Shown here: positions 1 through 47,103 of the stretch, piece after piece
How the letters are laid out: the number at the start of each line of letters is the position of its first letter
Position numbering within the stretch: the first letter of the stretch is position 1
NCBI RefSeq assembly: GCF_000143415.4
Contig: NW_003314311.1
Location: 1,124,769-1,188,768 of the forward strand
Reading direction: 5' to 3'
DNA from: Selaginella moellendorffii
Taxonomy: Eukaryota > Plantae > Lycopodiophyta
Length of the DNA: 64,000 bases
Made by a program: the position numbers and the translations under genes
The notes under the pieces: generated by a model
Told to the model about the DNA's origin: nothing
Seen by the model: the letters and a program-made list of their open reading frames with translations, nothing else
The model's database searches: none

Positions 1-1281
1 AAGTTGAGGGCGTTCTTGGGGCTATGCAACTACTATCGAAAGTTTATCAGACACTATTCGAGAGTAGCCCTGCCCTTAACGGACCAAACAGGAAAAGGGA
101 AGATGGTATGGACAGCGGAATGCGAGGCAGCATTCGTCCACCTTAAAGGGAAGTTGAGGAAGGCTCCCGTGTTGGCATTACCAGACTTTGGTAAGGACTT
201 TGAGGTAGAAATGGATGCTTCGGACTTTGCGTTGGGCGCAATTTTGAAGTAAGACAACTATCCAATAGCGTTCTTCTCGAAGAAGTTGGACAAGGCTCAA
301 CGGAAGTGGCTTGCCCACGAGAAGGAATTGTTTGTGGTGGTCAAGGCGCTCAAGGATTGGCAACACTACCTTGGGAGACACTTCAAGGTTTACACGGACA
401 ATGTAGCAACGAAACACTTTTGTCATAGCCCGACCTGAGAGGGAAACAAGGTCAGTAGGCCAATGCCTTGGCCGAGTTTGATTGTGAGATTCTGTACAAG
501 CATGGGAAGAGCAACATCGTGGCGGATGCGCTAAGTCGAAAAGCGAGCTTGAGGTTGGCGATATCCAACGCAACAGCAACCTTCTGGGACGATGTGCGGA
601 CAGCATATGAGAACGATGGTCTAGCACAAGAAGTGTTGCTGAGGAATCTAGAAGCACGGGAAGCTCACCAGAGAGGTGAGCTGCCAACGGAAGAAAAAAC
701 GGGCTATGCGGAACGCAACAGACTCATCTATTACAAGCAAACGAGGGTGTATGTTCTAGAAGGGGAACTAAGGAAGGTAGCCTTAGAAGAGTGTCATAAT
801 GAACCTCTTGCGGGACACGGCGGAGTGCCTAAGACGATGGGCTTACTCAAGAGGAAGTACCATTGGCCAGATATGGCTAAGGACGTCCAAGACTATGTAA
901 AGACATGTCCAACATGTCAGCAGGTCAAAGCCGTGACTAAGGCTAGTGGGGGCTTGTTGCAAAGCATCCCAATTCCAGATCATCCGTGGAAATGTCTTAC
1001 GATGGACTTCATCACGAGACTTCCCCCAAGCGAGGGGTTTGATGCGATATTCGTGGTGGTGGACCGATTTTCGAAAATGGCACATTTCATACCCACCACA
1101 ATGGAAGTGGATGCGGAAGGTGTGGCGAAGCTATTCTTCGAACAAGTGGTTCGAGTGCGAGGAAGGCCGGAAGAGATCATCTCAGACCAAGATAAGATCT
1201 TCACTAGTAGGTTCTAGAGGACTCTCCTAGAACAGTATCGCACCAAGTTGAAATTCAGCACAGCCTATCACCCACAGACAG

Positions 1282-1328
1282 GTATGGGGTATTAAGTCAA
1301 GTTGGTTGGCACTAACACTTCTTGATAG
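1282..1328 (+). other. Spliceosomal intron 1 in integrase (copy A), 47 nt
   Basis: GTATGG...CACTAAC...TAG. Removal restores the conserved STAYHPQT-D-GQTERVN integrase motif in frame. Confidence 0.85.
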
Positions 1329-1746
1329 ACGGACAAACGGAAAGGGTGAATAGGCAGCTGGAGGATTATTTGCGATGCTATGTCTCAGGAGACCACACCG
1401 ATTGGGTAAGTCATTTGGGACTTGCAGAAATATGTTATAACAACTCACCATATTCGAGTATCAGGGTGAGTCCATGGGAAGTCATCAATGGGCGAGCTAT
1501 TGAAGGTCTTGTGGAGCTCGGTGTGGCCGAGTACCATGGAGAGTTACCCGCAGTGGAGGCATTCATGGCGGAAAGACTCAGCATTTAGAATCTAGTGAGG
1601 GATTCCTTGGAACGGGCTCAACAAAGGCAAACCAAATACGTGAACCAGAAGCGTCAGGATGTAGAGTTCCAAGCTGGGGAAAAGGTGTGGCTGAACACCA
1701 AGAACCTCAGGCTACCAAGTGGGATCAGCCGAAAGTTGACCCAAAG

Positions 1747-1798
1747 GTAAAAATGCATGTATTCCTGTAAATGAATTGATCTTGAGTTCCTTAAGCAG
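1747..1798 (+). other. Spliceosomal intron 2 in integrase (copy A), 52 nt
   Basis: AG|GTAAAA...AAGCAG|G. Removal restores KLTQR-FAGPY (GPY/F motif) in frame with the chromodomain. Confidence 0.85.
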
Positions 1799-2581
1799 GT
1801 TCGCAGGGCCTTACGAGATCGAGACACGAATCGGTAAAGTGGCTTACCGACTCCGACTTCCTCGAGTGATGGGGAAGATGCACCCAGTGTTCCGCGTGAA
1901 CTTACTCAAGCCGTACTTTGAGGATCCGCTTCGCAAGGACCAAGTAAGACCTTTACCTGAGGTTATCCAAGGGGAAGAGGAATACGAAGTTGAGGCCATC
2001 CTCAATGCGCGCAAGAGCAAGCGACAAGGACGCGAGGTGAAAGAGTTCCATGTGAAGTGGAAAGGATTTCCACACTGCGAAGCAACGTGGGAACCGGAGG
2101 AGAACCTAGAAAACGCGCGAGATCTAGTGGAGGAATTTCTGCAAGGCAGAACTCTATGTATTTATGCAAAGTTCAATTAAAGTATCAATTTGTGGAGTTG
2201 AGCAATGGCATATGTTGGGACCCGAAAGCGCGCCGAAGGTAAGCTAATTAGCATGGGTTAGCTAGGTCGACCAGGCGTAGGGCACTACGCCCGACTCCCC
2301 GCGGGGATGTCAAATCCATAGACATATTCTACGGAGGTTGGGTTCAAGTCCCAACCCCCTAGTAAAGCAAGGCTGGGTTCAAGTCCCGACCCTATACTAG
2401 GGCGTGGTGAGGTGAGGAGTGTAGGGACACCTATACTCTGTTGTCATGGCTCTTGGCCAGGGAGGCTAATTTAGGCACACCGCTAAGTGGGGGGATGCCC
2501 CCGGAGACATGGTCAACAAGTCGTAAGATAAAAAAGAGACGTTCGATGTGGGCATCGAACTTCTTCTATGGGTGGTGGAGT

Positions 2582-3738
2582 TGTAAGGAACCGACTCCCC
2601 GAGATGTCGTAGGCTAAAGGATCCCCGAAAGCATGACCGAAATGACAAAGAGTTCATCGGATGGGACCGAGTCGAAGATTGAGTCCAAGACCGACTCTGA
2701 GACCGAGTCGAGATAGAGTCCGGGATCGAGTCCGAGACCGAATCGAAGACCGAGTTCGAGACCGAGTTCGAGACAGAGTCCGAGATCCAAATCGGGTCCG
2801 AGACCGAGTCCGAGGTCGAGTCCGAGGTCGAGTCCGAAGTCGAGTCCGAGATCGGGTCCGAGATCGAGTCTGAAATCGAGTCCGAGACCGAGTCCGAAGT
2901 CGAGTCCGAGATCGAGTCCGAGATCGATTCTGAGACTAATTCCAAATACTAATACAGCTCAAGGCGTGAAAGCCCAAAGCATGCATCTCCCAGGGGGGGG
3001 GGGCTGCAAGGGGTTCCAAAAGTATAGTAGGGATAGTGAGGTCCAAGAACCAGTCTTGAAGGAACTCTCCAGTGGGGCTTCCAAACTGACTTGAGGTTGA
3101 GATTGGGGCCGAGGGGCCTTGGGTGGGAGTGAGCATGGGCTTGAGTGGTGCCGAAGGGGCCAACCAGGGAAGTGCTCAAGAGTAGCTCCCACTCCCGAAA
3201 GGGAAACCGACTACAGTGCTCCCGGCTCATGTGGAGTGGTGCCCCACTTGAGTACCTTGTGGCTCATTGGTCCTCGCCCTTCCTAGGGGCTTGGGCCTTG
3301 CCTTCGGGATGGAAGTGCGGGGGTAGAGGTACCCATACCGGGCCGTTAGGCCACGGTGTTTCTCCCTGACGTCCCGAAGCAAGTGCTGCACCCAAGGCTT
3401 GGGATTTAGAGGGTCCCATGATCAAGTCTTGTGGTACCAAGGGGTGTTAGGAATCTGGAGGCTTGGTGTGCTTGGCTGCTTGTGCCTGCGGGGAGTGTAA
3501 CCGAACCTTAATTCCAGTCTAACCCGGGGAGGGGGATTCGGAGAGATTTGGGAATCCGTAGATGGATGGCTAACACTTCGTTGCTCATGCAGTGAGTAGC
3601 TAAAACCAAGTAGGACCAAGTAGGAGCTGGTACCATAGGCGAGAACCTTGGCGAGGGACCTTAGCACAAGCCAAGGCAGTGTTGGTCGAATAGACGAGGT
3701 AAGCTGGCAAATTGGAAAGGAAAAATTTGTGGCTTACA
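2582..3738 (+). repeat. 3' LTR of copy A (1157 bp)
   Basis: TGTAAG...CTTACA termini, preceded by a purine-rich PPT; matches 12370-13521 and 18755-19900. Confidence 0.95.
2662..2937. repeat. 6/12-bp degenerate tandem array (GAGTCCGAGAYC) in LTR U3; also at ~12450-12717 and ~18836-19097
   Basis: Directly visible periodicity; generates spurious SDSI / RVRD ORFs. Confidence 0.9.
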
Positions 3739-10105: not shown

Positions 10106-12369
10106 ACAGCCCACATCAATGCATGAGCTACTCCTCAAAGGACAGGAGGAAAGCCTCCTCTACCCTGGAAATCCCAAGCTTTTGGAGAAGATCACACTCT
10201 AGAGTCTCTACTGCAATGAAAGGCCCATGACATACTGGAAACTCTCACTTAAGCATCTTGCACTGGAGATTTCCCTTGTGGCCGGAGATGAATGCGGTGA
10301 TGTTGTGATGTTGTGAGGTTTATTTATGATGCACTTGCACTGGACACACTTCTTCCAGTAAGATCTGAACCACATCACGTACTCTAGTCTAGATTCATAT
10401 GCTTTTTGTTGAAAAATGAACAAGGTTATGAGTAAGTGATTTGCTAGTCATTATTGATCAAAGTGATTTTGGAAAGATGCTTTGAATGTGGAGTAGTTAA
10501 CTATGTTTGCCTCCAAAAGAGTGTTTTTTCCATGTTGTTTGGCCAATGAGTGATTGCAAAAAGTTGTAAAGCTTGTGCCAATGCTATTTGATGGACAATA
10601 TTGTTCAAAGTGAGTGATATATGTTTTGGCAAAGATGTCACCATTGCTAAAGAAGTGTGCCTTGCTATAGAATATGGATGTGCATGGGGAGAACCATCAA
10701 TGGTAGACTCTTTCACTCAGTATCTATGGTAAACAATGCTTCTTTCTTGCTAGAAAGAGCATTTTGGTAATCTAGCTTGCATAGGTATCAAAACATCCCT
10801 ATACCCTATGCATTATATGAAAGATTATTGGCTGCCATCTCTGCCTGAAATGAGTTTGAACTAGCATAATAAAGTGTCTAATATGTAGCAAATGCCAAGT
10901 CATAGAAAGATGTTAAAGAATTTTAATTTGTGTCAGAATAAAATGTCCAAAATGGGATAGTTCCAAATAAATAAGTATACTACTGTGGATTTCCCCTAAC
11001 CAAGATTGTTGTCCTTTTGCAAATCCCAATTCCTCATAAAGAAAAGAGAAATTTAGCTATAAAATTGAAGAAAGATATGAAAGATATCATGAAAGAATAT
11101 AGATATAGGATATCACCTAAAAACAGTGGAAAAAAAAAAAACAAAGAAAACAAGCTATAACTTTTAAAATGTTTCAAAGTGAATATGAAATTTGATATAG
11201 ACTCATTAAAAAAGCTTATACTTAAACAAAGAGAATGAGATTAAAACGATGGAGCTAAAACACCAAAATGCCTGTAGAAAACTGATTTAAACTTTAAATT
11301 TATAACTCATGTAATTATGAGATAAGATTTAGATATATTATTATTATGAATCTTTGGAACCTTGAGGATCCATTTGGACAATTTCCTTGTTTTAACACAC
11401 ACATTTTGAGTTTTCAACTGTGGAGTGATAAATATGTTAAAGGCTATATTATCAAATAATTTCCCCTTTTTCAATTTGTTGGTGAAATTTTTTTTGCTAC
11501 CTTGGAGTAGGAAAATATATGGTGCTTGCTTCACTTAGATTAGGATTAACTTGTTGTAGTTAGTGATGAAGCACAAGTGAAAACTCATGAGAGGGAAATA
11601 AGTGGGAGATTATTTTAAGCCTAGATAAAAAATTTGATGATTTACAAATGAAAAAAGTCTATATTAATGGGAACAATAGTATATAGTTGGTTAATTAGGA
11701 TGTGATTATAGGATGAGATTTAGATAACTATCATTATAGATCCTTGAGATAAAATAGCTATTAAATTTATTTTTATTAAATAATTACCTTTTCTCCAGTT
11801 GACTTAAATAAAATATGTTACATTTGGTTAGGATGGGTTCAATTCCTAAGAAAGTGGCACATTCACAAAATGAGGAAACCGAAGTGGCATAATATTTATA
11901 TATAGGAGAAAAAATATTTAAAAAAACGAGGGGCACATCACAATTATAAGGAAGGGGTACAACATTCAGAAAGAAGAGAAACATAAAATGGAAAAAAAAT
12001 ATTAAAAAAAGAGAAAAGAAGATAAGAAAAAGTCACCAAAAAGAGAAAAAATATTAAAAAAAGGAGGAGGAAGACTTTTAAAGAGGATAAAAAATATTAA
12101 AAACGAAGGAGAGAGGAAAAGGTCTATGGCAGAGGAGACAAGAAAAACATAATAGAGTGGGGAAATATAATATAGTTGAATGTTCAATAGGTGCTAGCTG
12201 TCATTAAATTTCATTATTTCTAATCTAATAGAGGAGAGGACAAAAGAGAAAAATTGTATAAATAGACTTCATTTGCGAGGGTGGAAGAAAATTTTTACTA
12301 ATCAAAATGTAGCAATTCAAACTTCAGGCTCCAGTCGCCTTTGATGCATTACTGCTGGTGCTAGCACTG
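10106..12369 (+). repeat. AT-rich spacer/peroxidase promoter, older paralog of 26278-28561; its distal part recurs at ~3874-4925 and ~20036-21087
   Basis: Collinear with many substitutions and indels; TATAAAT at ~12257 and ~28458 upstream of the peroxidase ATG. Confidence 0.85.
12307..12369 (+). pseudogene. 5' half of LTR-disrupted peroxidase exon 1 (continues at 19901-20038)
   Basis: ATG TAG... homologous to ATG CAG... at 28500; interrupted at CACTG by the retroelement. Confidence 0.85.
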
Positions 12370-13521
12370 TGTAAGGAACCGATTCCCTAAGATGTCGTAG
12401 GCTAAAGGATCCCCGAAAGCATGACTGAAATGACAAAGAGTTTATCGGATGGGACCGAGTCGAAGATTGAGTCCAAGACCGACTCTGAGACCGAGTCGAG
12501 ATAGAGTCCGGGATCGAGTCCGAGACCGAATCAGAGACCGAGTTCGAGACCGAGTTCGAGACAGAGTCCGAGATCCAAATCGGGTCTGAGACCAAGTCCG
12601 AGGTTGAGTCCAAAGTCGAGTCCGAGATCGGGTCCGAGATCGAGTCTGAAATCGAGTCCGAGACCGAGTCCGAAGTCAGGTCCGAGATCGAGTCTGAGAT
12701 TGATTCTGAGACTAAGTCCAAATACTAATACAGCTCAAGGGGTGAAAGCCCAAAGCATGCATCTCCCAGGGGGGGGGGGGGGGGGGCTGCAAGGGGTTCC
12801 AAAAGTATAGTAGGGATAGTGAGGTCTAGGAACCAGTCTTGAAGGAACTCTCCAATGGGGCTTCCAAACCGACTTGAGGTTGAGACTAGGGCCGAGGGGC
12901 CTTGGGTGGGAGTGAGCATGGGCTTGAGTGGTGCCGGAGGGGCCACCTAGGGAAGTGCTCAAGAGCAGCTCCCACTCCCGAAAGGGAAACCGACTGCAGT
13001 GCTCCCGGCTCATGTGGAGTGGTGCCCCACTTGAGTACCTTGTGGCTCATTGGTCCTCGCCCTTCCTAGGGGCTTGGGCCTTCCCTTCGGGATGGAAGTG
13101 CGGGGGTAGAGGTACCCATACCGGGCCGTTAGGCCACGGTGTTTCTCCCTGACGTCCCGAAGCAAGTGCTGCACCCAAGGCTTGGGATTTAGAGGGTCCC
13201 ATGATCAAGTCTTGTGGTACCAAGGGGTGTTAGGAATCTGGAGGCTTGGTGTGCTTGGCTGCTTGTGCCTGCGGGGAGTGTAACCGAACCTTAAGTCCAG
13301 TCTAACCCGGGGAGGGGGATTCGGAGAGATTTGGGAATCCGTAGATGGATGGCTAACACTTCGTTGCTCGTGTAGTGAGTAGCTAAAACCAAGTAGGACC
13401 AAGTAGGAGCTGGTACCATAGGCGAGAACCTTGGCGAGGGACCTTAGCACAAGCCAAGGCAGTGTTGGTCGGATAGACGAGGTAAGCTGGCAAATTGGAA
13501 AGGAAAAATTTGTGGCTTACA
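12370..13521 (+). repeat. 5' LTR of copy B (1152 bp)
   Basis: TG...CA termini; direct repeat of 18755-19900. Confidence 0.95.
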
Positions 13522-13547
13522 ATTTGGTATCGAAGCATTTTTCTCAG
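13482..13547 (+). other. Candidate 66-nt leader intron spanning LTR end and PBS
   Basis: GAG|GTAAGC donor, CTTAC branch-like motif at 13516-13520, TTTTTCTCAG acceptor 33 nt before the gag ATG. No coding frame to confirm. Confidence 0.55.
13525..13536 (+). promoter_or_regulatory. Primer binding site, tRNA-iMet-like (TGGTATCGAAGC)
   Basis: 3 nt downstream of the 5' LTR; resembles the canonical plant iMet PBS TGGTATCAGAGC with two mismatches. Confidence 0.8.
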
Positions 13548-16500
13548 TTCTAGCGAAGGATAGAGGTGGATTGCTGGGAGATGGCAAAGGCAGGGCGTAA
13601 GCGAACCTAGGCGGAGATAGAACCTCCGCCAAAGCTAGAGCCTCCGGTCGAACAAGAGGCTATGGATGAGGAATCCTTGCATGAGGAGGACTCCAGTGAG
13701 GAAACATCCAAACAGGAGTCCGGTGGCGAGGTTCGGTCGTCCAAGGCTCGATTGGACGTTCTAGAAGGACAATTGGCACAGACCAATGCCCTGCTAGAGA
13801 CTCTCGTACACAAGCTAAATTGTGACGAGAAGCGGAAGAAAAAGCGAAAGACTGCGGATGCTGGCAGCGCAGAAGGTGTGGACCCTTCGGCAGGGACTAA
13901 GGCAAAACCAGACAAGGTCGAACAGACCGAAGTGGAATCAATCCCTCAGGCAGTTCCCAAGTACAAACCAAAGCCCCCACCGGTCTTCAAGGGAGTGAAC
14001 GACTATAAGGTGGTGGAGGATTGGTTTTATGATATGGAGAACTACTTCTGAGCGTTGCGATTACCGAGCTCGGAGAAGGTCCCATATGCAAAACCATACT
14101 TGGCAGATAATGCCAAGTCTTGGTGGAGAACGACAAAGGCCAACGAAGGACCGGTGGCCACTTGGGAAATGATGAAGGCGAGGATTCGCGCAACTTACGT
14201 TCCTCCGAATGCTACTCTGCATCTAAGGGACGAGCTGAGTAGGCTGAAGCAGACCAGAACCATTCAGGAGTATGTGAATAGGTTTATGGCAAAGAGGATA
14301 CTTGTCATGGACATAAGGGATATGGATGTGTTCCATGCCTTCATATCAGGTTTGCAAACCTGGGCTCGCGATGAAGTGATGCGATGGAACCCGACCAACT
14401 ACAAGGAAGCGTTGGATGCGGCCATCAAGGTGCATTTCAACGATAACCTGCGAAAGGGGAACACGACGGGGTCAAGATGCACGTTTAGCAAAGGGGCCAA
14501 ACCAAGGGGAACGTTTAGCAGAGGGAAATTCAAGAAGAGTTTTTCTAAGAATGAGTCTTCGGGGTTCCGGAAAGGCAAATCTGGTGGCCAGCGAGCGAGT
14601 ACGTGGGGGAGTCAAGCGAAAAGAGACAAACCCACAGATAAGAAGGTCAAGTCATATAGCAGCGTGGGAAACAACGTATGCTACAACTGCGGTGAAGCGG
14701 AACACTTTTCGAGGGAATGTCCCTACCCGAAAAAGGCCAGAGCCAATATGGCCATCAAGTCGGGTGAAGTCCAAATTAAGATATGTGATCCAGTCCCTAA
14801 CTCAAAGTTACTCATTACACGAGCAACTTTGGTAGAGAGTCGTTCGCGACATCTACTAGCCCTCCGAGGGAAGCTCGGAGGTAGCTTTGTTAAGATCCTT
14901 ATTGACACGGATGCTTCGGATAATTTTGTGGCTGCAGACATAGTCCGGCAAGCCGGACTAATGGCGTAGCGGCTAGGCGAACCAAGGACTATAGAGTTTG
15001 TTCAAGGTAGCCAAAGCACCGATGAGGTACTTCGACAAGCGAGAGTCGAAGTAGGGACATGGAAAGTGGACATGGATTTCACTGTGTTGGACATGGTGGG
15101 ATTTGACGTGATCTTCGGAATGGACTGGTTCAATCGGTTCGTGGTAGCCCTGCATGGACGAGGTAGAAACCTTGTGGTACTGGCGAATGCCCAAGGAAGA
15201 AGATCTAGGGTGGAGGCCTAGGATCTAAAGGTAGGGCAAAGCAAGGCCAAAGAATCCTGCTTAAACTTGGTGTCCACGAGAGGGCAACTCACTAAAGGAA
15301 CTAAGGCAGCATTTTTGTGCTTACTCTCGGTGAAGAGTGACAAAAAGACAGGAACGGAAGAAGTACCTTTAGTGATCCAACGGGTGTTGGACCAATTCCA
15401 GGATACCATGCCGGAGGAGTTACCGGCGGGGTTGCCCCCCACACGATCGATAGAACATAAGATTGAGCTGGTCGAGGGTGTTGAGGCAGTGGTTCGTCCC
15501 CCCTATCCTTTGAATGAGAAAGAACTCGAGGAGCTCAAGCGCCAACTAGAGGAGTTGGTGGACAAAGGGTATGTTAGGTTGAGCAAGTCGCTGTATGGGG
15601 TGCCAGTGTTATTTGTGAAAAAGAAAGATGGATCTATGTGCATGTGCATAGACTACCGATTGCTCAACAAGTATACAAAGAAGAACAAGTACCCTTTGCC
15701 CAGGATTGAGGACCTGTTTGATAGGTTGGGAAAGGCAAAATACTTCTCGAGAATTGACCTGAGGTCAGGATACTACCAAATCAGGGTAGCAGAGGAAGAT
15801 GTCGAGAAGACAACCTGTCGAACTAGGTATGGGAGCTTTGAGTTTCTGGTCATGCCCTTTGGGCTGTGCAATGCGCCGGCAACGTTTTTGGCATTGATGA
15901 ACCATATCTTTGTACCCTATCTGGATCACTTCGTGGTCGTCTATATTGACGACATCCTAATCTATAGCGAGATGCTAGAGGAGCATGCCGAACACTTGGC
16001 GAAGGTATTTGAGAAACTAAGGGAACACAAATTGTATGCTAAAGAGAGCAAATGTGACTTTGCTCAACAAGAGGTAAAGTTTCTTGGGCATGTGGTGGGC
16101 CAGGACGGGCTCAAGGTGGACCCAGAGAAGGTCCAAGCGATCCAGGAATGGGAGCGACCATCAAATATACATAAGTTGAGGGCGTTCTTAGGGCTATGCA
16201 ACTACTATCGAAAGTTTATCAGACACTATTCGAGAGTAGCCCTGCCCTTAACGGACCAAATGGGAAAAGGGAAGATGGTATGGACAGCGGAATGTGAGGC
16301 GGCATTCGTCCACCTTAAAGGGAAGTTGAGGAAGGCTCCCATGTTGGCATTACCAAACTTTGGTAAGGACTTTGAGGTAGAAACGGATGCTTCGGACTTT
16401 GCGTTGGGTGCAGTTTTGAAGCAAGACAACTATCCAATAGCGTTCTTCTCGAAGAAGTTGGACAAGGCTCAACGGAAGTGGCCTGCCCACGAGAAGGAAT

Positions 16501-17454
16501 TGTTTGTGGTGGTCAAGGCGCTCAAGGATTGGCAACACTACCTTGGGAGACACTTCAAGGTTTACACGGACAATGTGGCAACGAAACACTTCTTGTCACA
16601 GCCCGACCTGAGAGGGAAACAAGGTCGGTAGGCCAATGCCTTGGCCGAGTTTGATTGCGAGATTCTGTACAAGCATGGGAAGAGCAACATCGTGGCGGAT
16701 GCGCTAAGTCGAAAAGCGAGCTTGAGGTTGGCGATATCCAACGCAACAGCAACCTTCTGGGACGAGGTGCAGACAGCATATGAGAACGATGGTCTAGCAC
16801 AAGAAGTGTTGCTGAGGAATCTAGAAGCACGGGAAGCTCACCAGAGAGGTGAGCTGCCAACGGAAGAAAAAATGGGCTATGCGGAACGCAACGGACTCAT
16901 CTATTACAAGCAAAGGAGGGTGTATGTTCTAGAAGGGGAACTAAGGAAGGTAGCCTTAGAAGAGTGTCATAACGAACCTCTTGCGGGACACGGCGGAGTG
17001 CCTAAGACGATGGGCTTACTCAAGAGGAAGTACCATTGGCCAGATATGGCTAAAGATGTCCAAGACTATGTAAAGACATGTCCAACATGTCAGCAGGTCA
17101 AAGCCGTGACTAAGGCTAGTGGGGGCTTGTTGCAAAACATCCCAATTCCAGATCATCCGTGGAAATGTCTTACGATGGACTTCATCACGAGACTTCCCCC
17201 AAGCGAGGGGTTTGATGCGATATTCGTGGTGGTGGACCGATTTTCGAAAATGGCACATTTCATACCCACCATAACGGAAGTGGATGCGGAAGGTGTGGTG
17301 AAGCTGTTTTTCGAACAAGTGGTTCGAGTGCGGGGAAGGCCGGAAGAGATCATCTCAGACCGAGATAAGATCTTCACTAGTAGGTTCTGGAGGACTCTCC
17401 TAGAACAGTATCGCACCAAGTTGAAATTCAGCACAGCCTATCACCCACAGACAG

Positions 17455-17501
17455 GTATGGGGTATTAAATCAAGTTGGTTGGCACTAACACTTCTTGATA
17501 G
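17455..17501 (+). other. Integrase intron 1 (copy B), 47 nt
   Basis: GT...CTAAC...TAG; splicing gives HPQT-D-GQTERVNR. Confidence 0.85.
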
Positions 17502-17919
17502 ACGGACAAACGGAAAGGGTGAATAGGCAGCTGGAGGATTATTTGCGATGCTATGTCTCAGGAGACCACACCGATTGGGTAAGTCATTTGGGACTTGCGG
17601 AAATGTGTTATAACAACTCACCATATTCGAGTATCGGGGTGAGTCCATGGGAAGTCATCAATGGGCGAGCTATTGAAGGTCTTGTGGAGCTCGGTGTGGC
17701 CGAGTACCATGGAGAGTTACTCGCAGTGGAGGCATTCATGGCGGAAAGACTCAGCATTTGGAATCTAGTGAGGGATTCCTTGGAATGGGCTCAACAAAGG
17801 CAAACCAAATACGTGAGCCAGAAGCGTCAAGATGTAGAGTTCCAAGCTGGGGAAAAGGTGTGGCTGAACACCAAGAACCTCAGGCTACCAAGTGGGATCA
17901 GCCGAAAGTTGACCCAAAG

Positions 17920-17971
17920 GTAAAAATGCATGTATTCCTGTAAATGAATTGATTTTGAGTTCTTTAAGCAG
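17920..17971 (+). other. Integrase intron 2 (copy B), 52 nt
   Basis: GTAAAA...GCAG; splicing gives KLTQR-FAGPYEI. Confidence 0.85.
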
Positions 17972-18740
17972 GTTCGCGGGGCCTTACGAGATCGAGACAC
18001 GAATCGGTAAAGTGGCTTACCGACTCCGACTTCCTCGAGAGATGGGGAAGATGCACCCAGTGTTCCGCGTGAACTTACTCAAGCCGTACTTTGAGGATCC
18101 GCTTCGCAAGGACCAAGTAAGACCTTTACCTGAGGTTATCCAAGGGGAAGAGGAATACGAAGTTGAGGCCATCCTCAATGCGCGCAAGAGCAAGCGACAA
18201 GGACGCGAGGTGAAAGAGTTCCATGTGAAGTGGAAAGGATTTCCACACTGCGAAGCAACGTGGGAACCGGAGGAGAACCTAGAAAACGCGCGAGATCTAG
18301 TGGAGGAATTTCTGCAAGGCAGAACTCTATGTATTTATGCAAAGTTCAATTAAAGTATCAATTTGTGGAGTTGAGCAATGGCATATGTTGGGACCCGAAA
18401 GCGCGCCGAAGGTAAGCTAATTAGCATGGGTTAGCTAGGTCGACCAGGCGTAGGGCACTACGCCCAACTCCCCGCGGGGATGTCAAATCCATAGAAATAT
18501 TCTACGGAGGTTGGGTTCAAGTCCCAACCCCCTAGTAAAGCAAGGCTGGGTTCAAGTCCCGACCCTATACTAGGGCGTGGTGAGGTGAGGAGTGTAGGGA
18601 CACCTATACTCCGTTGTCATGGCTCTTGGCCAGGGAGGCTAACTTAGGCACACCGCTAAGTGGGGGGATGCCCCCGGAGACATGGTCAACAAGTCATAAG
18701 ATAAAAAAGAGACGTTCGATGTGGGCATCGAACTTCTTTT

Positions 18741-18754
18741 ATGGGTGGTGGAGT
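18741..18754 (+). promoter_or_regulatory. Polypurine tract (ATGGGTGGTGGAGT)
   Basis: G-rich tract immediately 5' of the 3' LTR; same at 2568-2581. Confidence 0.75.
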
Positions 18755-19900
18755 TGTAAGGAACCGACTCCCCGAGATATCGTAGGCTAAAGGATCCCCG
18801 AAAGCATGACCGAAATGACAAAGAGTTCATCGGATGGGACCGAGTCGAAGATTGAGTCCAAGACCGACTCTGAGACTGAGTCGAGATAGAGTCCGGGATC
18901 GAGTCCGAGACCGAATCGAAGACTGAGTTCGAGACTGAGTTCGAGACAGAGTCCGAGATCCAAATCGGGTCCGAGACCGAGTTCGAGGTCGAGTCTGAAG
19001 TCGAGTCCGAGATTGGGTCCGAGATCAAGTCTGAAATCGAGTCCGAGACCGAGTCCGAAGTCGAGTCCGAGATCGAGTCTGAGATCGATTCTGAGACTAA
19101 GTCCAAATACTAATACAGCTCAAGGGGTGAAAGCCCAAAGCATGCATCTCCCAGGGGGGGGGGGGCTGCAAGGGGTTCCAAAAGTATAGTAGGGATAGTG
19201 AGGTCCAAGAACCAGTCTTGAAGGAACTCTCTAGTGGGGCTTCCAAACCGACTTGAGGTTGAGACTGAGGCCGAGGGGCCTTGGGTGGGAGTGAGCATGG
19301 GCTTGAGTGGTGCCAGAGGGGCCAACCAAGGAAGTGCTCAAGAGCAGCTCCCACTCCCGAAAGGGAAACCGACTGCAGTGCTCCCGGCTCATGTGGAGTG
19401 GTGCCCCACTTGAGTACCTTGTGGCTCATTGGTCCTCGCCCTTCCTAGGGGCTTGGGCCTTCCCTTCGGGATGGAAGTGCGGGGGTAGAGGTACCCATAC
19501 CGGGCCGTTAGGCCACGGTGTTTCTCCCTGACGTCCCGAAGCAAGTGCTGCACCCAAGGCTTGGGATTTAGAGGGTCCCATGATCAAGTCTTGTGGTACC
19601 AAGGGGTGTTAGGAATCTGGAGGCTTGGTGTGCTTGGCTGCTTGTGCCTGCGGGGAGTGTAACCGAACCTTAAGTCCAGTCTAACCCGGGGAGGGGGATT
19701 CGGAGAGATTTGGGAATCCGTAGATGGATGGCTAACACTTCGTTGCTCGTGTAGTGAGTAGCTAAAACCAAGTAGGACCAAGTAGGAGCTGGTACCATAG
19801 GCGAGAACCTTGGCGAGGGACCTTAGCACAAGCCAAGGCAGTGTTGGTCGGATAGACGAGGTAAGCTGGCAAATTGGAAAGGAAAAATTTGTGGCTTACA
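18755..19900 (+). repeat. 3' LTR of copy B (1146 bp)
   Basis: TGTAAG...CTTACA followed by TSD CACTG. Confidence 0.95.
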
Positions 19901-21087
19901 CACTGCTGCGGCGTTATGCATTTCGCCAGGGATCACCAACGATGTCATCGGAGTTCTCAACGTCTTTTTATGCTAGCACTTGTCCCGATCTCCCTCAAAT
20001 CGTGAGAAGTGTGATTCGCTTTGAATTTTCCAATGACATTTTGAGTTTTCAACTGTGGAGTGATAAATATGTTAAAGGCTATATTATCATATAATTTCCC
20101 CTTTTTCAATTGGTTGGTGAAATTTTTTTTGCTACTTTGGAGTAGGAAAATATATGGTGCTTGCTTCACTTAGATTAGGATTAACTTGTTGTAGTTAGTG
20201 ATGAAACACAAGTGAAAAATCATGAGAAGGAAATAAGTGGGAGATTATTTTAAGCCTAGATAAAAAATTTGATGATTTACAAATGAAAAAAGTCTATATT
20301 AATGGGAACAATAGTATATAGTTGGTTAATTAGGATGTGATTATAGGATGAGATTTAGATAACTATCATTATAGATCCTTGAGATAAATAGCTATTAAAT
20401 TTATTTTTATTAAGTAATTACCTTTTCTCCAGTTGACTTAAATAAAATATGTTACATTTGGGTAGGATGGGTTTAATTCCTAAGAAAGCGGCACATTCAC
20501 AAAAATGAGGAAACCGAAGTGGCATAATATTTACATATAGGAGAAAAAATATTAAAAAAAACGAGAGGCACATCACAATTATAAGAAAAGGGTACAACAT
20601 TCCATGCGTAAGGAACTTAAGAGAAGGCGGCAAAGAGTATCGTGCCACGCCATTCGTGCTAGACAAGCAACGGGGATGCGGACAAAAGCTTGGTTTCATC
20701 TCACGGGCGGAAAACCTTCGACCTCTCCAAGTTTTCCCTGTCAAACTCATGCTGAAGAGAAACATAAAATGGAAAAAAAATATTAAAAAAAGAGAAAAGA
20801 AGATAAGAAAAAGTCACCAAAAAGAGAAAAAATATTAAAAAAAGGAGGAGGAAGACTTTTAAAGAGGATGAAAAATATTAAAAACGAAGGAGAGAGGAAA
20901 AAGTCTATGGCAGAGGAGACAAGAAAACATAGTAGAGTGGGGAAATATAATATAGTCAAAAGTTCAATAGATGCTAGCTGTCATTGAATTTTGTTATTTC
21001 CAATCCAACAGAGGAGAAGACAAAAGAGAAAAATTGTATAAATAGACTTCATTTGCGACGGGTGGAAGAAAATTTTTACTGATCAAA

Positions 21088-33000: not shown

Positions 33001-36000
33001 TGGAAAGAAAAGCCAATTGTTGGTAGACTTGGGACATTTTAATCTTCGAACACTGGTACGTGCATAAGATGCATCTAAAACTTACAACATCCTTCTTCAG
33101 GGGAATGACGACGTTGAGTTTCCGAAACGAAGTCGCTACTCTAAACTTCATGTATCTGGACGGGATATATCGGCTTTCTTTGTTGATGGTGATTTCGAAT
33201 GGGCTCACTTTCCTGCGCTGGCCACAGATGCTGGTGACAACGCATATTCAATCTTTCCTGTACTTGACCGTTGTGGGATGTCGATTATGCTGCATATGGT
33301 GAAGCTAGTTACGACATAGTTTGTGGTTATTGACTTTATGTTCCAGGCTCAATATGAAGATTTGAATTGGCCTTCAACATGCATTGCAATTGAAGTTCCT
33401 CGCCTTGGTATCCATTTTTCTCCTGCAAGATACCGTAGGCTGCTCTATCTTCTGCACGCTCTGGAGTCGGCTGACCGGTCCAGCTCCCAGCCGAACGCTT
33501 TATCTTGGCAACCATCAGAGGCATCTGGAGATGCACGAGTGCTTCTGTGGGGGGTAAATTGTTACTTTCCTCGTTCATCAGCGTCTAAGCATCGCTCATT
33601 CTGCAGGGAATCGGTAATATTACTGCAGAATGGCAGCCTTGTTGGATTACATTGGCGGGGCCATACCTGTACGTTCTAGAGGCAGAAGACTCAAAGACAT
33701 ATCAACGTTATTGTAGGCAAGTAGTCGTGCGGTGTATAAAGTTCTTGTCTTAATCTTTTTTTGCGTTTTACAGCTTAAATGGCAAACAAATAGTTGAAAT
33801 ACCTCCCGAATATATTGATGGTTCAGAAAACGTGGTTGCGGTTTGTAACAGGGGTATTGATTTGCAGAAGGTATGCTTGTTTTAGAGATGGAATTCAAAC
33901 AGTTCATGTCTTGCTCTAGGTAATCGAATCTTCGAGCGCAGTTGTTCTCCAGTTGAAAAGTACAGAATCAAAGGCGTCTTGGTTTAAGTATCTTACACTT
34001 GCTACTTACCGTTCGTCCGTAAGTTTTTCATATCACTTTTACATGGTTTCATGAAGCTATTTAACTGTTCAGGCATCAGTTTCTCTTCTGTCTAATCCCG
34101 AAGAGACGAGTACAAAGGTGTTGGATTCTTCAAAACAACTCACTTTATTTGTTTCGGGCGCTCTAAAGGAGTTAAGCATCTCTGTTTCCGGAAAGGTATG
34201 GTTCCTCCTTTAGTTTTGTAGGTCTTAATGAACGTTTATAGATTGGTAAGCCGGGAAATGACGAGATTGTCATAGCAGAGCTCCAAGCATCAGGTGGTAA
34301 GGTGAGTTTGGCTCAACACAGGATTCTAGATATGTGAACTTAAAAACTGTTGCAGGTGAATTTGCTGCAGCGGCCGTACGACATGAAAATAGCAGTGAAG
34401 CTACATTCCTTAAAGATTGAGGACAAGCTCCAGGGATCAGTTTCTCAGTCCTGTCGGTATGTTGCTCGATCAGTTTTGTCCAAAACTTTTGTGGGAGCAG
34501 AAGAACCACAAGAACCAGAAGCACCGAAACCAGATGACGATGAACAGTTTAAAGACGCTCAGCCTGATTTTGGAGGATTTTCTGAAGAGGCCGTAAAGCT
34601 CGTTCTAAGCTGGCAGCCTGACCAGGCCAACTTCCTTGAGATATGGGGGAGCTTGGATCAGTTGTCCGAAAAAGCTGAAGGTTCAGAGGCATCTGATTTT
34701 GTCAAGGTGATACTTGTCCTGAGGGAAACAGAGTCTTCCGAATATGTTGATACTGATACGCAGGTATTCGTTTCTGTAGTTTTGTATGCTCTCCTTATCT
34801 AAAGTCTTCATGTTTTGCAGATGATTATGAAGATGGCCACCTTAGACTTTTTCTGTAATCGTCCAACAATAGTCGCGTTGATCGAGTTCGGAATGCAGCT
34901 CAGTGAAATTATGGAGGCAGAAGAGTCACCATCACAGGCTGCTCTTTCTCTGGAGGTGGAGCAAAGACAACTTGTTAAAGGATTACTAGGACGAGGAAAG
35001 TCCCGGGTTGTGTTTGGGCTCAAAATGGATATGGAGAGCACTCGCATTTTCTTGAATCTGGAAGACGGATCTCAACTTGCTATGTTGGCTCAAGAAAAGT
35101 TTCAAATGGACTTAAAGGTGCGTGCTTGATAAGCTTGGAGAGGCTTAATGTGTTGAATGCAGGTATATCCTGGTTCTTTCACCATCTCAGGAAATCTGGG
35201 AAACTTGCGGGTCTGTGACATGAAGCTTGGCCCTGAACACCGATGGGGCTGGCTTTGTGACATTCGAAATCCTGACTCCGGTTCACTTGTCGAGGTACTT
35301 TCTTCGGGCAGCTTGTCTGTCGTAAAATAACATTTCTTTTATAGATAGAGTTTCAATCCTTCAACAGAGACGATGACGACTTTGAAGGCTGTGACTATAG
35401 TTTGGTTGGAAAGTTTTCTGCGGTTCGAGTAGTTTTTCTTTACAGATTTATACAAGAGGTTTGTATCTTTGCTGCTAATATATTTTAGCTTGATGTTCTT
35501 ACTTTTTCCCATCTTCAGGTGGCTGCTTATTTCTATGCACTAGCCTCCCCTCAAACTCAACAGATAATCACAGTTTTCGACGCCGCTGGTGGTACTGAAA
35601 AGATCATGCAGCAAGCTGATATGGACGGAGCACCCGCTTTGAGGCTTAATTTATCGATGGATACACCGATCATTATTATGCCTCGCAGTTCCAGCAGCAA
35701 AGAGTCCGTATTTTTTCCGTTAATCTTGTTGTTTCTCTAACATTCTTGTCACCAGGTTTATGGAGGTTGATCTCGGCCATTTGAAGCTGTCAAACACATT
35801 TGAATGGCATGGAGGCTCGCGGGACGTAGTTTCTGCTGTCCATCTCGATGTTTTAGACGTGGATGTAAGCATGAGGAATTTTTTTCTTTTATATATCCTA
35901 TTCACTCCTCCTCATAGATTTCAGGAGTAAACATGGTGGTCGGAATTGATGGTAAAGCAGGGAAGCCCATGATACAAGAAGCTCAAGGTCTACATTTGAC

Positions 36001-39000
36001 CATAAGGCGTCCTTTGCGCGATCTTTTTCAGAAAGTACCTGAAGTGCAAGTTGATGTCCAGGTAAAATTCCGGCGTTGTGCTTGCCTTTCTTGCTTACTT
36101 TGCGGTTGCTAGGTGCTAACTTTGTGCGGAGTAATGTCGGACCGAGAATATCTGGTCATTATTGATTGTGCTTCAACGAATATAAACGAGCCACCTGACT
36201 TGCCGCCAAACTTTCGAGAATCGACTTCGAGCGAATCCGATGACCAAGAAACTCCAAATTTCAAATCAGTGGAGCTCGAAGAACATTTCCGTGATTCTCA
36301 GACATACTTCACCAAAGTTTGGGTTATAGTAGATGTGTTATATGCAGAGCTGGAACTATTCAAAGGTATAGAACGTGAATCTCCTCTTGCTCGTGTCGAG
36401 GTAATTCTACAAAACGTTTCCTTGATTTCATATACTGACGATTGGTTCTAAAACTAGGTGCACAGTTTTTGGCTTGGTTATCGTTTCGCATCAACACTGG
36501 AAACCGATATTTATGTCACATTACCAAAGCTCTCGGTTGTGGATCTCCGGCCTGGCACGAATGCAGAGATGAGGATGATGTTTGGCTCTATTCCCGATGT
36601 CGAGAAAGACGGCCAGCCTGGCGAAAGCGAACATAAGTCTGTCACTCGACTAACGATGTTAGTAATGGACCTGCGAATGAAGCCTCATGCTCAGACTATT
36701 GTTATTCGGATGCAACGACCTCGGCTGCTGGTGGTGGTGGATTTTCTCTTGGAAGTCAGCCAGTTTTTTGTCCCATCGGCGGTGGCATCAACTGGTGATG
36801 AAGAAAAAGATCCACTCGCAACAGCAAAGCACGTCAGGCTTGTTAGTTCTCATTATCGGCAAGAAGAGCCAATGTCGATAATATCACCGGAGCGTCAAGT
36901 TATTGCTGATGCAGTTCACATCCAAGAGTTTTTATACGACGGATGTGACCGGGTGCTGGAGTTACAAGTTGAAGATGATTATGCTGGTGCCAACGCAGAA
37001 CCTGTTATCGTTGTTGGACATGGGAAGAAGCTGCGTTTCAAAAATGTTAAAATCAAGGTATAGATGTGCTGTGCTACTTTTTTTTACCAACACATCTGCA
37101 GAATGGAGCGCGTATTCACGAGTGCATCAAACTCGCAAGTGGTGCTAGCTACAGTTTTCATGAAGAAGATGGTGTCACATTTGTAAGTAACGAGGAAAAG
37201 ATCACGACAGTAGTGGATGGAGGGTCAGCAACAGATCCAGGGAGCCCAAAACTTGACGATCGTGGGGACTCCAACCAGGACTTTCTTCTGGATGTACAGG
37301 TATATGCATTTGAACTTTTTCGTGTTTGCTCATATTTTCTAGCAGATTGTAGCACCGGAACTGACATTTTACGATAGCACAAAATGGCCATCGTCTACAA
37401 CATTGTCCCGGCAGGAAAAACTCCTGAGAGCAAAAATGGATTTTAACCTTATGTAGGTTGCTTGTTTCTTTTCCTCTTGCGCTAATGCTAGTCTTACAGG
37501 TTCGCGTTGAAAGGTGAAAACAGATGGGTGAGGAGTTTTGTGAAGGGACTAAGTGTAGAAAACAGCTCGGGAGTCATGATATTAGATCCACTCGATATTT
37601 CTGCCGAGTACGTCTGTGCCCAAGGAAAGTCCAATATTCTAGTCACCGCATCAGACGTTTTCTTGCGGCCCTCTTTCAACGTTATGCGGTTGGTAATGCG
37701 TTTGCACAGTGATGCTGTTGCACGATTCCATCTTGATCGCGGAGTCATACATCGTTGCACCCATTTTGACCGAATATGGGTGAACAAACCAGGTTTAAGC
37801 TGGTCTTTATTTAATTATTGTTCTTAACTTTCGTATCACCGCAGGGAATACTTCTTCGCCCGAAGTTACTTTCTGGAGGCCAAAAGTTCCTCCTGGCTAC
37901 GTGATATTAAGCGATTGTGTAACCTCGGGGTGAGTAATTCTTCGTGGCGAGAAAAAAAATTATGTACTGATCTTTTGCATTTGCAGGACGGCACCCCCGT
38001 CTCAAGGGGTTGTAGCTGTTTTCAATTCTCACCATCGAGTTAAAAAGCCTTTAAAGTTCGACCTTGTCTGGAGCTCGTATGGGAATTCCAGCAACTCAGT
38101 TTTGAATGAAGAACCATGCTGTGTTTGGCTCCCGGTTGCGCCGCCAGGATACAAAGCCGTTGGCTGTGTGGCCGAGCGAGGAACTTCTCCTCCCTCTTTA
38201 AATACTGTCCACTGCGTCAGATCGGACCTTTTGACATCGAGTGCAGTCACTGACTGCGTTCTGTGCATTCCTCCTGGTGACAGGTATTTAGCTGAGTCTT
38301 GTTTCTTTCTTTCGGTGAAGAAGCTAAACTTTTGTGTTTCCTGTGAAGGGATTATGCGGATGGTTGCAGCATTTGGCGTGTAGACAACACGATTGGCTCC
38401 TTCTTTGCACGCTCTTCTGTTAATCCACCACAAAAGGATATGTTGTGCGACCTGCGTCACCTAGTTCTGAATCACTTGAGTAGTCCGACCGAGAGAACGG
38501 ACGACGCTGTCGAAGTTAAAGTGGTGGAACGTACGCCTCATCCTGCACCACGAGCTAGCAGAAACTCCTTAACTACTCCGCAGTTTGAAAGGCTTTGGTG
38601 GGACAGAGGCACGGAAACCAGACGCGTAGTTTCGATTTGGCGGCCTATCCCAGCCAGCGGGTATGCAATTGTTGGCGACAGCATCGTTGACGGGTACGTG
38701 AAGTCTTTCAGTCATAGAGAAAGTTTTAACGTTTCCTTTTGTTTTTCAGGCTCGAGCCACCAGGCATTGGATTAGTTTTACGCGATGATGGCACAGGACG
38801 TCTCTGTAAACCCATTCGTTTCCAGCAAAAGGTTCACATTTGTGGGAGAGGCCTTGAAGATGTGTACATCTGGTATCCAGTCGCACCGGCGGGCTATGTT
38901 GCCTTGGGATGTGTTGCAACAACAACGCCGGATCATCCTCCACTTGATATGGTCCGGTGCGTTCGTATGGATCTTGTGAGTCAAGGAAGTCTTTCCAAGC

Positions 39001-42000
39001 GTCCAGTGTGGAGCTATATAGGCAGCCGTGGTGGTCACAGCTGCTGCTTGTGGAAAGTGGAGAACCAGGTATCTTCAAGATCTCATATCATCTTGGCTCA
39101 TTCCACGACTTTTCGTATGCAGGCTAGCACCTTCATTGCTCGTGCTGACTTGAAAAAGCCTCTCGTGCGGATGGCATACTTCCTTGCCGAAACTGGACGG
39201 CCTAAAGTCCGAGAAAACCTGACTGCCGAAATGAAACTTGGACGTTTATCGGTTACTGTCGTTGACGATCTTTCTGGCATGGTATGCGCAGTTTTTTATA
39301 TACTGTTTGAAAACACTAGTAACTTTGTTATTGCAGGCAACACCTCTTGTTAATGCGACTTTAACCGGTGTCAACTTAGCAGCCCATGGTCGACCGGATG
39401 CTCTGAATGCCGTGGCATTGACATCGATTGCTGCGTCCACGTTCAACGCGAGCCTTGATGCTTGGGAACCACTGATTGAACCATTTGATGGCATTCTGAA
39501 GTATGTGACACCTTTTATAAGTTTCTAGCCATGACCTTAACGTGCTTGTTTCTGTGTTTGGCTATAGATACGAGTTCTATGGTGGGGATTCGGATGCAAC
39601 GTTAAAGATTGGTAGACGTGTTCGAATCACCGCAGCCAGCACGGTCAGCATTAATATTACATCTGCTAGCCTGGAAGCTCTGATAGGAGCTATGGCTGTC
39701 TGGCAAAAGCAAACCGAGTCGGAACAAGAGGCGCTAAGCGCGATGAGGACGGTATAATTTAATTTTTTTTTGATGGAATACATACACTGACTGCGTATGG
39801 TTGTGATGATAGGAGAAAACGGATTACAAAGCAGGAATGACGGGCAAAGCTGCATTGGAGGAAGATGACAGTGAGAAGCTTGTAGTTCAAAATATGCTCT
39901 TTTCTGAGCTCTACCTGAGAACTTTCCGAAGCGGCTTTGAGAATGTAGAAGTGCTGCAAGAAGGAGAAACTTCCATTATTCCTTTGCCACCCCCTAGCTT
40001 TCCCGACAAGCTGGCAAGCGGGGTTCAAAAACCATCCCGGCAATTTGTCGCAGTTCACGTGCTTGAAGCAAAGGTAATTTACATTATTTTGTTATCTACA
40101 TTGTTAACGGCTTTTCGATGCAGGGCTTGTTGGTAAATGACGATGGTAATTGTCCCGATTTTCTGTGTGCTCTTCGTTTAGTGACTACGAAGCAGCTACC
40201 TGAAGATCCGAAAGCGCTCCCACAAAGTGCTAGATCTCGTTGCGTGCGTCCAAATGACGTGCAGTCCCTGTCCCGGGCTTCAGCAAGCTGGAATGAAGTT
40301 TTCATTTTTGAAGTTCCGTCACAGGTAAGTAATTTCATTACTGTTTCTTTACAGTATTGATTGTTTAGCACACAGGGGTCTGTGAATTTGGAAGTGGTTA
40401 TTACCAATCAAGCTGCTAGAAGTGGAAAAGGTAATTTCTTCGTTGTTACTTGAAGTACCATATGTTTTATTACTCTTTGCAGGAGAGGCAGTCGGTATTC
40501 TCTCACTTCCTGTGAAAGAAGAAGCGAGTCATAAAGTATCTCAACCTTCGACGTTGTGGAAAATGGTCAGGCAGTCGATTAGTCAAGAATCCTGGCCAGC
40601 TGCTCAAGCCAAAATTCTCTCCTTGAGACCGCCTCGAAAGCGGGTATATACAGCTGACATTTCCAATGCTAGTTTAGCTAATGGTTGGCTGTGCAGGGAA
40701 ACATTGCAGAGTTGCAGTCTCAAGAGTGTGGCAACATAGCTGTTCAGCTTTACTTCTTCTCTACTGCACCAGATTGGCGACGTGACAAGGATGAGAAACT
40801 GCCGACGAAAGACTATGGCCTGCTGTTTTCGTGCCGTCCTGATGGTCCTTGGGAAAGCTTGCGGTGCGTGCTACCTTTCGCAACAATTCCCAAAACAGTT
40901 GGTGAGCAACAAGTTGCTGTGGACGTAACGATGGATCAGGGTCGAAAGCATGCTACGTTTCGGAGTTTGGTTATCGTCGCAAACAACACAGACATGGCGT
41001 TGGAAGTGGCTATATGCCCATATTCTCTGCTCCATACGCCGAATGACACAGATGGTGGCGCTACATCTTTAGACAATTCTACTCGTGTTGACGAAGAATG
41101 CTTTGAGAACCAAAGATATCAACCTTTAGCAGGGTGGGGAAGCAAATGGCCGGGACATCTTATTCCGACCGATCCCGGAAGGTGGAGTACGCGAGATTTT
41201 ACTCAATCATCTCAGGTACAAAGTCGATCATTTGTAGAATTGCTTGAACTGACTTGAGTGTATCCTCTTGTAGGAAATACTAAAGGTTCAGCTGCCGCCG
41301 GGCTGGATTTGGACTTCAGACTGGACAGTGGATCTTTCTGGAAACGTAGATCAAGACGGCTGGTTCTACGGTCCGGACTTCCAGAGCTTAAGGACGCTGC
41401 CAGTTTCTTCTAAGGCATCGAGGAAGTCCACTTTCGATTTTGTTCGACGACGACGTTGGATCCGCACTAGACAACGTGTACCAGACAACAAGAAGGCGCA
41501 CAAAAGAGAGGTGGTGGGAGTGATTCAACCGGGGTCGTCCATCCAGCTGCCTCTTGCAAGCACTGCTCGTCAGGCAGATTACTGTGCTCAAGTTCGTCCG
41601 GTGACAGACACATGCGGAAGTTATCTGTGGGGTCGGTTAATAAGCGATCCAAATCCCATTGCTGCGAACTCATCCACGCCAAGAAAGTCTATCAAGCAGA
41701 GTAAAAGCAACATCTCCTCACAGGATTTCACGTTGGGCCACCTTGAGAAAAGAGAACAGCTGCTACTATGCGTCACGGCTGATATGACAAGCTCAAAAGG
41801 CCATTGCTGGCTCAGCATGGAAGCGGATGCTACTATCCTGTCTGGCGACTTGAACACTCAAATTTACGACTGGAGATTATCAGTGAACGCACCCTTGCGG
41901 CTGGAAAACCTTCTGCCTTGCAACGCAGAGTACATAATCTGGGAGAAGATAAATGAGGCCAGGCCGGTCAAACGGCAGCATGGGATAGCTTCAGCCGGTG

Positions 42001-46740: not shown

Positions 46741-47103
46741 ATAAGTGCTTTTTCCATTCCGGGACTAAAGCTGTACAGGAGCTCTCCTTCATTGTTTTAT
46801 ACACATTGCAAATAAGTTTCTTTAATCTTTGGCCAGTTCTTGACGTTTCCTTGTTCGTAGAAATCTGCAGCGATGGTAATTTCAGACGAAAACTTACTAA
46901 AAACTTGTTGTAGCAGATTTCTCGCGTCGTCTACTCCTTTCGTTGATCGCGGTAAAGTTAACGTGGGTAAGTTGGTAGTATCAAAATCTTCGCCAAGCCC
47001 ACATTGATGGACGTGGAGGGCTCGAGCGAGACAATAATTATGTGCTCGCTAGCTATCGGGTCGCGACGAAAAACAGAACAAACTCAGCTCAAATTATTTA
47101 AAA

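Follow-up and report, generated by a model that had tools for sequence, protein, structure and literature searches.

The classic textbook evidence for retrotransposition is that introns disappear in a single round of copying, and an RNA without the primer-binding site (PBS) and the U5 end cannot prime tRNA-dependent reverse transcription. Several viruses and elements provide precedents for parts of what is described here. In foamy viruses, the major splice donor sits in R, upstream of the PBS, and suppresses 5′ polyadenylation via U1 (PMC3694450, PMC3185757, PMC7828637). Isoforms of the CaMV 35S RNA that lose the PBS are not reverse transcribed, and those that keep it are (PMC4498817). The translated and packaged RNA pools of BARE1 are kept separate by promoter and cap (PMC3735527). 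In Arabidopsis Copia elements, the protease is spliced out to give a short Gag mRNA, and in EVD this splicing is coupled to premature termination; no comparable conserved splicing was found in Ty3/Gypsy elements in that study (PMC5580714). The Ogre element has an inter-ORF intron that must be removed to translate the whole polyprotein (PMC6317226), and Cer1 produces a spliced, SL1-led mRNA for an accessory protein (PMC3315495). Penelope and Chlamys elements retain introns, including one in the 5′ UTR that lies across the boundary of the terminal repeat or overlaps it (PMC8557442). According to a 2025 review, plant LTR elements are generally intron-less, with Ogre and EVADE (Copia short-Gag) as the only exceptions (PMC12786077).

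Here, we analyzed a 64,000-nt stretch of the Selaginella moellendorffii genome (the window), in which a 66-nt interval at the border between the 5′ LTR and the internal region of an LTR retrotransposon had been proposed to be an intron. This leader interval is real and spliced, and it belongs to an expression plan with four introns, one of them likely, in a family that was already known but had been misread. All coordinates are those of the window, and the features of the element lie on the + strand.

Results

Structure and family of the element

The LTR retrotransposon measures 7531 bp (12370–19900), and the leader intron lies at its 5′ LTR/internal border. It is flanked by the target-site duplication (TSD) CACTG (12365–12369, no strand assigned; repeated at 19901–19905). 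The 5′ LTR (1152 bp, 12370–13521, TGTAA...TTACA) is 96.7% identical to the 3′ LTR (1146 bp, 18755–19900). The differences between the two comprise 31 transitions and 1 transversion; their final 60 nt are the same, which is not significant because only ~1.7 differences are expected there. The U3 region of the 5′ LTR contains a 12-bp tandem array and an 18-G tract at 12769–12786, and the length of this poly-G tract is variable. A G-rich polypurine-tract-like (PPT) stretch lies at 18743–18753, ahead of the 3′ LTR. The LTRs bounded by TG..CA, the TSD, the PBS, and the PPT are those of a Ty3/gypsy chromovirus, and the domain order obtained with Pfam (gag, zinc knuckle, protease, RT, RNase H, integrase, SH3-like region, and C-terminal chromodomain) is that of Ty3/gypsy. 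The protease match is weak in its N-half (E 0.055) and has an E value of 7e-8 in its C-half. The closest RT homologs are distant (≤60% identity). In unspliced RNA, the gag-pol frame (13581–17468) starts at the gag ATG (13581) and extends over 3885 bp plus a stop at 17466 inside integrase intron 1. The window copy is decayed and has five premature stops, at 13608, 14049, 14967, 15219, and 16629.

The element matches SM1-Galahad, as judged from the published description rather than from a consensus sequence (PMC3350952). SM1-Galahad is a Galadriel-related chromovirus of Selaginella moellendorffii, a clade placement that is taken from this paper only. As described there, the family has a length of ~7.5 kb, LTRs of >1 kb, poly-G tracts of 11–25 nt, hundreds of copies, and a PBS-like sequence complementary to tRNA-Met (PMC3350952). 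The window element fits these traits with 7531 bp, LTRs of 1152 and 1146 bp, and G runs of 18 and 12. The published consensus, built from several copies, contains a 3885-bp ORF without a chromodomain and two further ORFs of 316 and 309 bp (PMC3350952); the corresponding ORFs of the window measure 3885, 318, and 309 bp, the last two being hand-counted from the first Met to the stop. In the same paper, Novikov et al. report that no intact SM1-Galahad copy was found and that the sister family SM2-Galahad has a single unbroken intact ORF (PMC3350952). The words "intron" and "splic" are absent from the main text of that paper. Here, the three published ORFs prove to be exons of a single gene; the leader and protease introns do not appear in the published description.

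The 3′ part of a second copy (1–3738) is also present in the window and retains both integrase introns. Because it shares the same TSD and belongs to a 16,172-bp segmental duplicate, it is a copy of the same insertion and was ruled out as independent evidence.

Leader intron

The leader intron (13482–13547, 66 nt, GT..AG) holds the last 40 nt of the LTR, which include the integrase attachment end, together with the PBS. The donor GAG/GTAAGC (13479–13487) lies 40 nt upstream of the LTR end (TTACA, 13521), the tRNA-Met-type PBS (TGGTATCGAAGC) occupies 13525–13536, and the acceptor TTTTTCTCAG ends at 13547, which is 11 nt downstream of the PBS and 33 nt upstream of the gag ATG. Two middle letters of the PBS differ from those of the canonical initiator-Met PBS. 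A putative branch motif, CTTAC (13516–13520), overlaps the LTR terminal repeat; because the terminal inverted repeat also dictates CTTAC, the motif has no independent weight as a branch point. An earlier note on this DNA had listed the donor, the branch-like motif, the acceptor, and the PBS with their distances, all of which proved exact, and the junction that it predicted between 13481 and 13548 is present in transcript contigs (see below).

The AT content is 64% in the leader intron versus 47% in the flanks. The chance of such a pair of sites was estimated by searching first-order Markov-resampled element sequence for AG/GTAAG within 60 nt upstream and seven pyrimidines plus YAG within 60 nt downstream of a fixed point, and 4 of 20,000 positions qualified, with motifs that had been picked post hoc. 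Generic AG/GTRW donors show no enrichment in the element (13 observed versus 9.85 expected), and the folding of the leader RNA is unremarkable (z −0.91). All three LTRs in the window carry the same leader donor, and the window has only one acceptor; the donor copy in the 3′ LTR, at 19861, is followed by neither a PBS nor an acceptor of the element. Among metagenome contigs, the exact LTR–PBS pattern had 0 matches, and a search with integrase exon 2 gave two distant loci at 33%, which were set aside.

Seven upstream AUGs are present in the ~750-nt leader of the window copy (12855–13349). None of them is within the leader intron, and splicing therefore removes none; translation past them may need shunting or internal entry. 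Contigs of two runs from two studies (X16 and X18, introduced below) begin at 12833 and 12839, ~30 nt downstream of a TATA-like TATAGT, and hint at a possible transcription start region (12833–12839), although contigs as such cannot show starts. A 358-nt fragment of the LTR (12979–13336) was also seen within the transcript of another locus, with the same loose ends in runs X22–X24, X16, and X19. The first mates over this fragment are on the minus strand, so it is likely sense RNA.

Splice junctions in transcript contigs

Eight of the 24 matching runs were compared, namely the four contig runs X16–X19, three raw RNA runs, and the DNA run X1. The contig runs (X16 and X17 from study P2, X18 from P3, and X19 from P4) are presumed to be RNA by a guessed label, and their transcript contigs derive from another family copy that is ~94–95% alike (5–6% different) to the decayed window copy. 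The leader junction from 13481 to 13548 was found in X16 (short side, 79 nt) and X17 (255 nt), that is, in two of the four presumed-RNA contig runs and in one study. As aligned, this joint reads 13479>13546 and skips 66 nt, with GT..AG at a cut of +2. An 806-nt contig of X18 crosses the leader unspliced from 12839 to 13652, and X19 does not bridge the leader. Both integrase introns are skipped in X16, X17, and X19 (three of the four runs, studies P2 and P4), and intron 1 is kept in X18. A further joint, 14775>14936 with three other letters between, occurs in X16 and X18 (short side in X18, 25 nt).

When the bin depth at the leader and protease sites was compared with that of the spliced contigs alone, the values for X16 and X17 were equal (3.25/3.25, 6.07/6.07, 1.58/1.58, and 1.45/1.45). 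Therefore, these runs have no unspliced contig at either site, contigs being a form of data that drops rare forms and hides single molecules. The assembled RNA in X16 and X17 is spliced at the leader and protease sites together in bulk. In the contig runs, no read or contig joins the leader junction to the integrase junctions, and none of the contigs is an isoform with the protease intron kept and the integrase introns spliced. The unspliced leader and the protease joint of X18 would fit PBS-bearing, partly spliced molecules, or DNA or nascent RNA in the library. In the three raw RNA-seq runs, of which ~12% each was sampled (68, 26, and 41 reads aligned), the depth in the leader bin was ≤0.31, too thin to count as evidence, and no joints emerged. 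In the DNA run X1, none of the four intron skips was among the 15 best-supported of at least 129 joints.

Integrase introns

Integrase intron 1 (17455–17501, 47 nt, GT..AG, with CTAAC) falls within the Asp codon of HPQT-D-GQTER, ahead of the catalytic Glu, and carries an in-frame stop. At its junction, exactly one residue is present in all 120 of 120 homologous integrases, and this residue is Asp in 119. Exon 2 (17502–17919) encodes the end of the catalytic core. Its start, GQTER, aligns to GQSER at 1269–1273 of Ty3 Gag-Pol, the Glu of which we take to be the third catalytic residue of Ty3, E261. Integrase intron 2 (17920–17971, 52 nt, GT..AG) lies within an Arg codon of the SH3-like region, and one residue is found at this junction in 52 of the 67 scored homologs (53 of the 120 were unscored). 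Exon 3 (17972–18353) encodes the SH3-like region and the chromodomain. Frameshifts acquired by decay were considered as the origin of the two breaks and were excluded by the precise GT..AG borders, the splicing in RNA, and the single residue at the junction in homologs. The family consensus breaks at the same places; therefore, intron-bearing copies are the family norm.

As judged from the reading frame, translation of unspliced RNA would give an integrase without the catalytic Glu, the SH3-like region, and the chromodomain. Since the frame stops in intron 1 ahead of the catalytic Glu, unspliced RNA cannot make active integrase, and the enzyme must therefore come from spliced RNA. The integrase introns are obligatory, yet they are retained in DNA.

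Protease intron and the 3′ end

The joint with three differing letters in X16 and X18 places a likely Gag/protease intron of 157 nt at 14781–14937. Its donor is non-canonical in the window copy; in DNA run X1, G accounts for 569,474 of the 570,424 contig depth summed at 14781. Position 14904, where the protease active site falls, lies inside this intron and aligned to D-T/S-G in 30 of the 33 homologs that scored, out of 240. A single codon separates the junction from a stop, and splicing at this site is likely to produce a Gag-only mRNA. Premature termination right after the intron was not seen in X16, where the joint contig continues for 765 nt into RT. The element thus likely uses a Copia-like short-Gag strategy in a Gypsy background, without immediate termination.

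The spliced contigs of X16, X17, and X19 stop at 18300, 18310, and 18305, respectively, without a loose end, and X18 continues. Downstream of these positions, possible internal poly(A) signals are present (TGTA at 18330 and AATTAAA at 18348; region 18330–18417), and beyond them lies a second AG/GTAAGC donor-like site (GT at 18412) that matches the leader donor exactly. This slight hint could point to an internal poly(A) site, controlled by U1, near 18300–18417. The same contig ends faintly hint at a second lock, by which spliced RNA would end upstream of the PPT and the 3′ LTR.

Discussion

Proposed division between message and genome

We consider it fairly probable that unspliced RNA serves as the genome and spliced RNA as the message, and that excision of the PBS locks the message out of replication. 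Three RNA classes are probably involved: an unspliced genome, a Gag-Pol message spliced at the leader and integrase introns, and a fully spliced Gag message. The fully spliced form is the one assembled in study P2, and the Gag-Pol message is predicted. Integrase would be made from spliced RNA. When the leader and integrase introns are removed and the protease intron is kept, full Gag-Pol would be produced, and RNA spliced at all four introns would give Gag only, supplying the excess of Gag. Leader-spliced RNA would be unable to start reverse transcription because its PBS and U5 attachment end have been removed. The pool that escapes splicing at all sites together would be packaged and copied, and new insertions would thereby inherit all introns. 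Such all-site escape would need a coupling device, which could be Gag binding, selective export of RNA that has stayed unspliced, or a promoter of its own.

In this scheme, the leader intron acts as the lock and need not be the switch. Loss of the PBS alone is insufficient to preserve the integrase introns, because RNA that is unspliced at the leader and spliced in the integrase could still be copied, and because template switching from co-packaged spliced RNA could erase introns. These escape routes imply that splicing is coupled per molecule or that spliced RNA is kept out of particles. The earlier note had held that spliced transcripts serve translation only, that unspliced RNA alone propagates, and that this would explain the survival of the integrase introns. 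The leader is indeed spliced and both of its forms were seen, and the integrase introns are real, spliced, and retained in DNA; its explanation further requires that retention of the leader intron and of the integrase introns be coupled on single molecules. It missed the likely fourth intron over the protease. In a broader and tentative reading, to which we give slightly less than an even chance, the lineage inverts the usual rule: a split integrase works only after splicing, and a micro-intron over the LTR end and PBS dead-ends every spliced message. With this lock, introns in enzyme genes could be gained and kept for good, and introns spanning the LTR and PBS may be recurrent and overlooked in plant and fungal LTR elements.

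Alternative explanations

The leader intron might instead be mainly an expression element, acting by intron-mediated enhancement or export or as a U1 site that suppresses 5′ LTR polyadenylation. The integrase introns would then survive by another filter (selective packaging or export, a BARE1-like promoter, or poly(A) addition before the PPT and 3′ LTR), and PBS loss would be a side effect or a redundant lock. We regard this explanation, taken as a whole, as unlikely but worth serious attention. In foamy viruses, gag expression depends on the R donor, which holds back polyadenylation in the 5′ LTR; the BARE1 pools are divided by promoter and cap, and EVD couples splicing to premature termination. 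The spliced contigs (three runs, two studies) ending at 18300–18310, before the poly(A)-like motifs and the second AG/GTAAGC, also hint weakly at another filter, but the internal 3′ end is a hint drawn from contig ends. The position of the acceptor argues against an expression role: it lies only 11 nt past the PBS, whereas the ~750-nt leader offers other places, so that its excision takes out little more than what is needed to remove the attachment end and the PBS. In addition, a U1 role requires no acceptor.

That SM1-Galahad is non-autonomous for integrase and moved in trans by the intron-less SM2-Galahad, with splicing being incidental or host-imposed at one expressed locus, is improbable in our judgment. 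The five premature stops of the window copy agree with such mobilization, as do the lack of an intact SM1-Galahad copy and the intact ORF of the sister family reported by Novikov et al. (PMC3350952), and the three raw RNA runs, in which the leader and most of the interior had no reads, carry no weight on expression. However, removal of the integrase introns brings the exons back into exact frame, and sequence of the catalytic core, the SH3-like region, and the chromodomain is preserved in the exons downstream. The junctions are present across three studies combined, and the protease intron with its clean Gag-only message looks selected. We assign a far smaller probability to the leader junction being a cryptic splice of one copy rather than a family trait. 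The junction was found in one study only, but the window copy and the expressed copy, ~5–6% apart, agree in the coordinates of the junction, the three LTRs of the window have one and the same donor, and the spliced contigs explain all of the leader depth in X16 and X17.

Comparison with known systems

Returning to the proposed lock on the message, foamy viruses share several features with it: the donor is inside the LTR upstream of the PBS, spliced mRNAs consequently lose U5 and the PBS, and an essential enzyme (Pol in foamy viruses) comes only from spliced RNA. However, the foamy virus intron is kilobases long and spans gag, Gag is made from unspliced RNA, and the role of the LTR donor there, U1-mediated suppression of 5′ polyadenylation, is a different one. 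In SM1-Galahad, the 66-nt intron removes little beyond the attachment end and the PBS, gag lies downstream, and short gene-like introns are in the integrase. The leader donors of CaMV likewise cut out the PBS, but PBS-keeping spliced isoforms are copied to intron-less DNA, and CaMV has neither a splicing-dependent enzyme gene nor an integrase. As in BARE1, the RNA for translation is distinct from the RNA that is copied, and as in Copia short-Gag, a protease-spanning intron with a stop soon after the junction gives a Gag-only mRNA. BARE1 and EVD differ in being members of the Copia superfamily, in separating their pools by promoter, cap, or premature termination rather than by PBS excision, and in making Pol from unspliced RNA. 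Ogre and Cer1 are also gypsy-type elements with both spliced and unspliced RNA; Ogre differs in having one intron between ORFs, and its available description mentions no PBS-removing intron. Penelope and Chlamys are not LTR elements and have no tRNA primer and no DDE integrase, and the paper gives the basis of their intron retention as unknown (PMC8557442).

In the open-licence literature, a scope that leaves most subscription papers and Repbase notes outside, we found no LTR retrotransposon whose integrase contains obligatory introns or in which a short intron covers the LTR end and the PBS, and the design is without mention in the available portions of PMC9804982, PMC4558846, PMC12477816, and PMC13736810. 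The suggestion that the design was undescribed is too broad, as foamy viruses and CaMV also lose the PBS by splicing, and BARE1 has separate RNA pools for translation and replication. The principle is thus not new; a micro-intron that serves it in an LTR retrotransposon whose integrase is split appears to be undescribed. A high-copy family that needs two integrase introns removed, yet keeps them, must split message and genome almost perfectly. It offers a natural, countable system for how retroelement RNA goes to translation or packaging, and may serve as a model of how Penelope elements retain their introns. It is also a warning for annotation, as "broken" LTR elements may be intact split genes.

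Host locus

The neighboring peroxidase shares 98% identity with a protein of Selaginella moellendorffii. The peroxidase locus (1–33700) consists of tandem segmental duplications with a 16,172-bp period and units of ~7.4 kb. The element is inserted in the 5′ part of one peroxidase copy, and empty sites are found near 4984, 21146, and 28558. Pieces of a VPS13-like gene (+ strand) and an F-box ORF (− strand) are located at 36000–47000 and 52154–53239.
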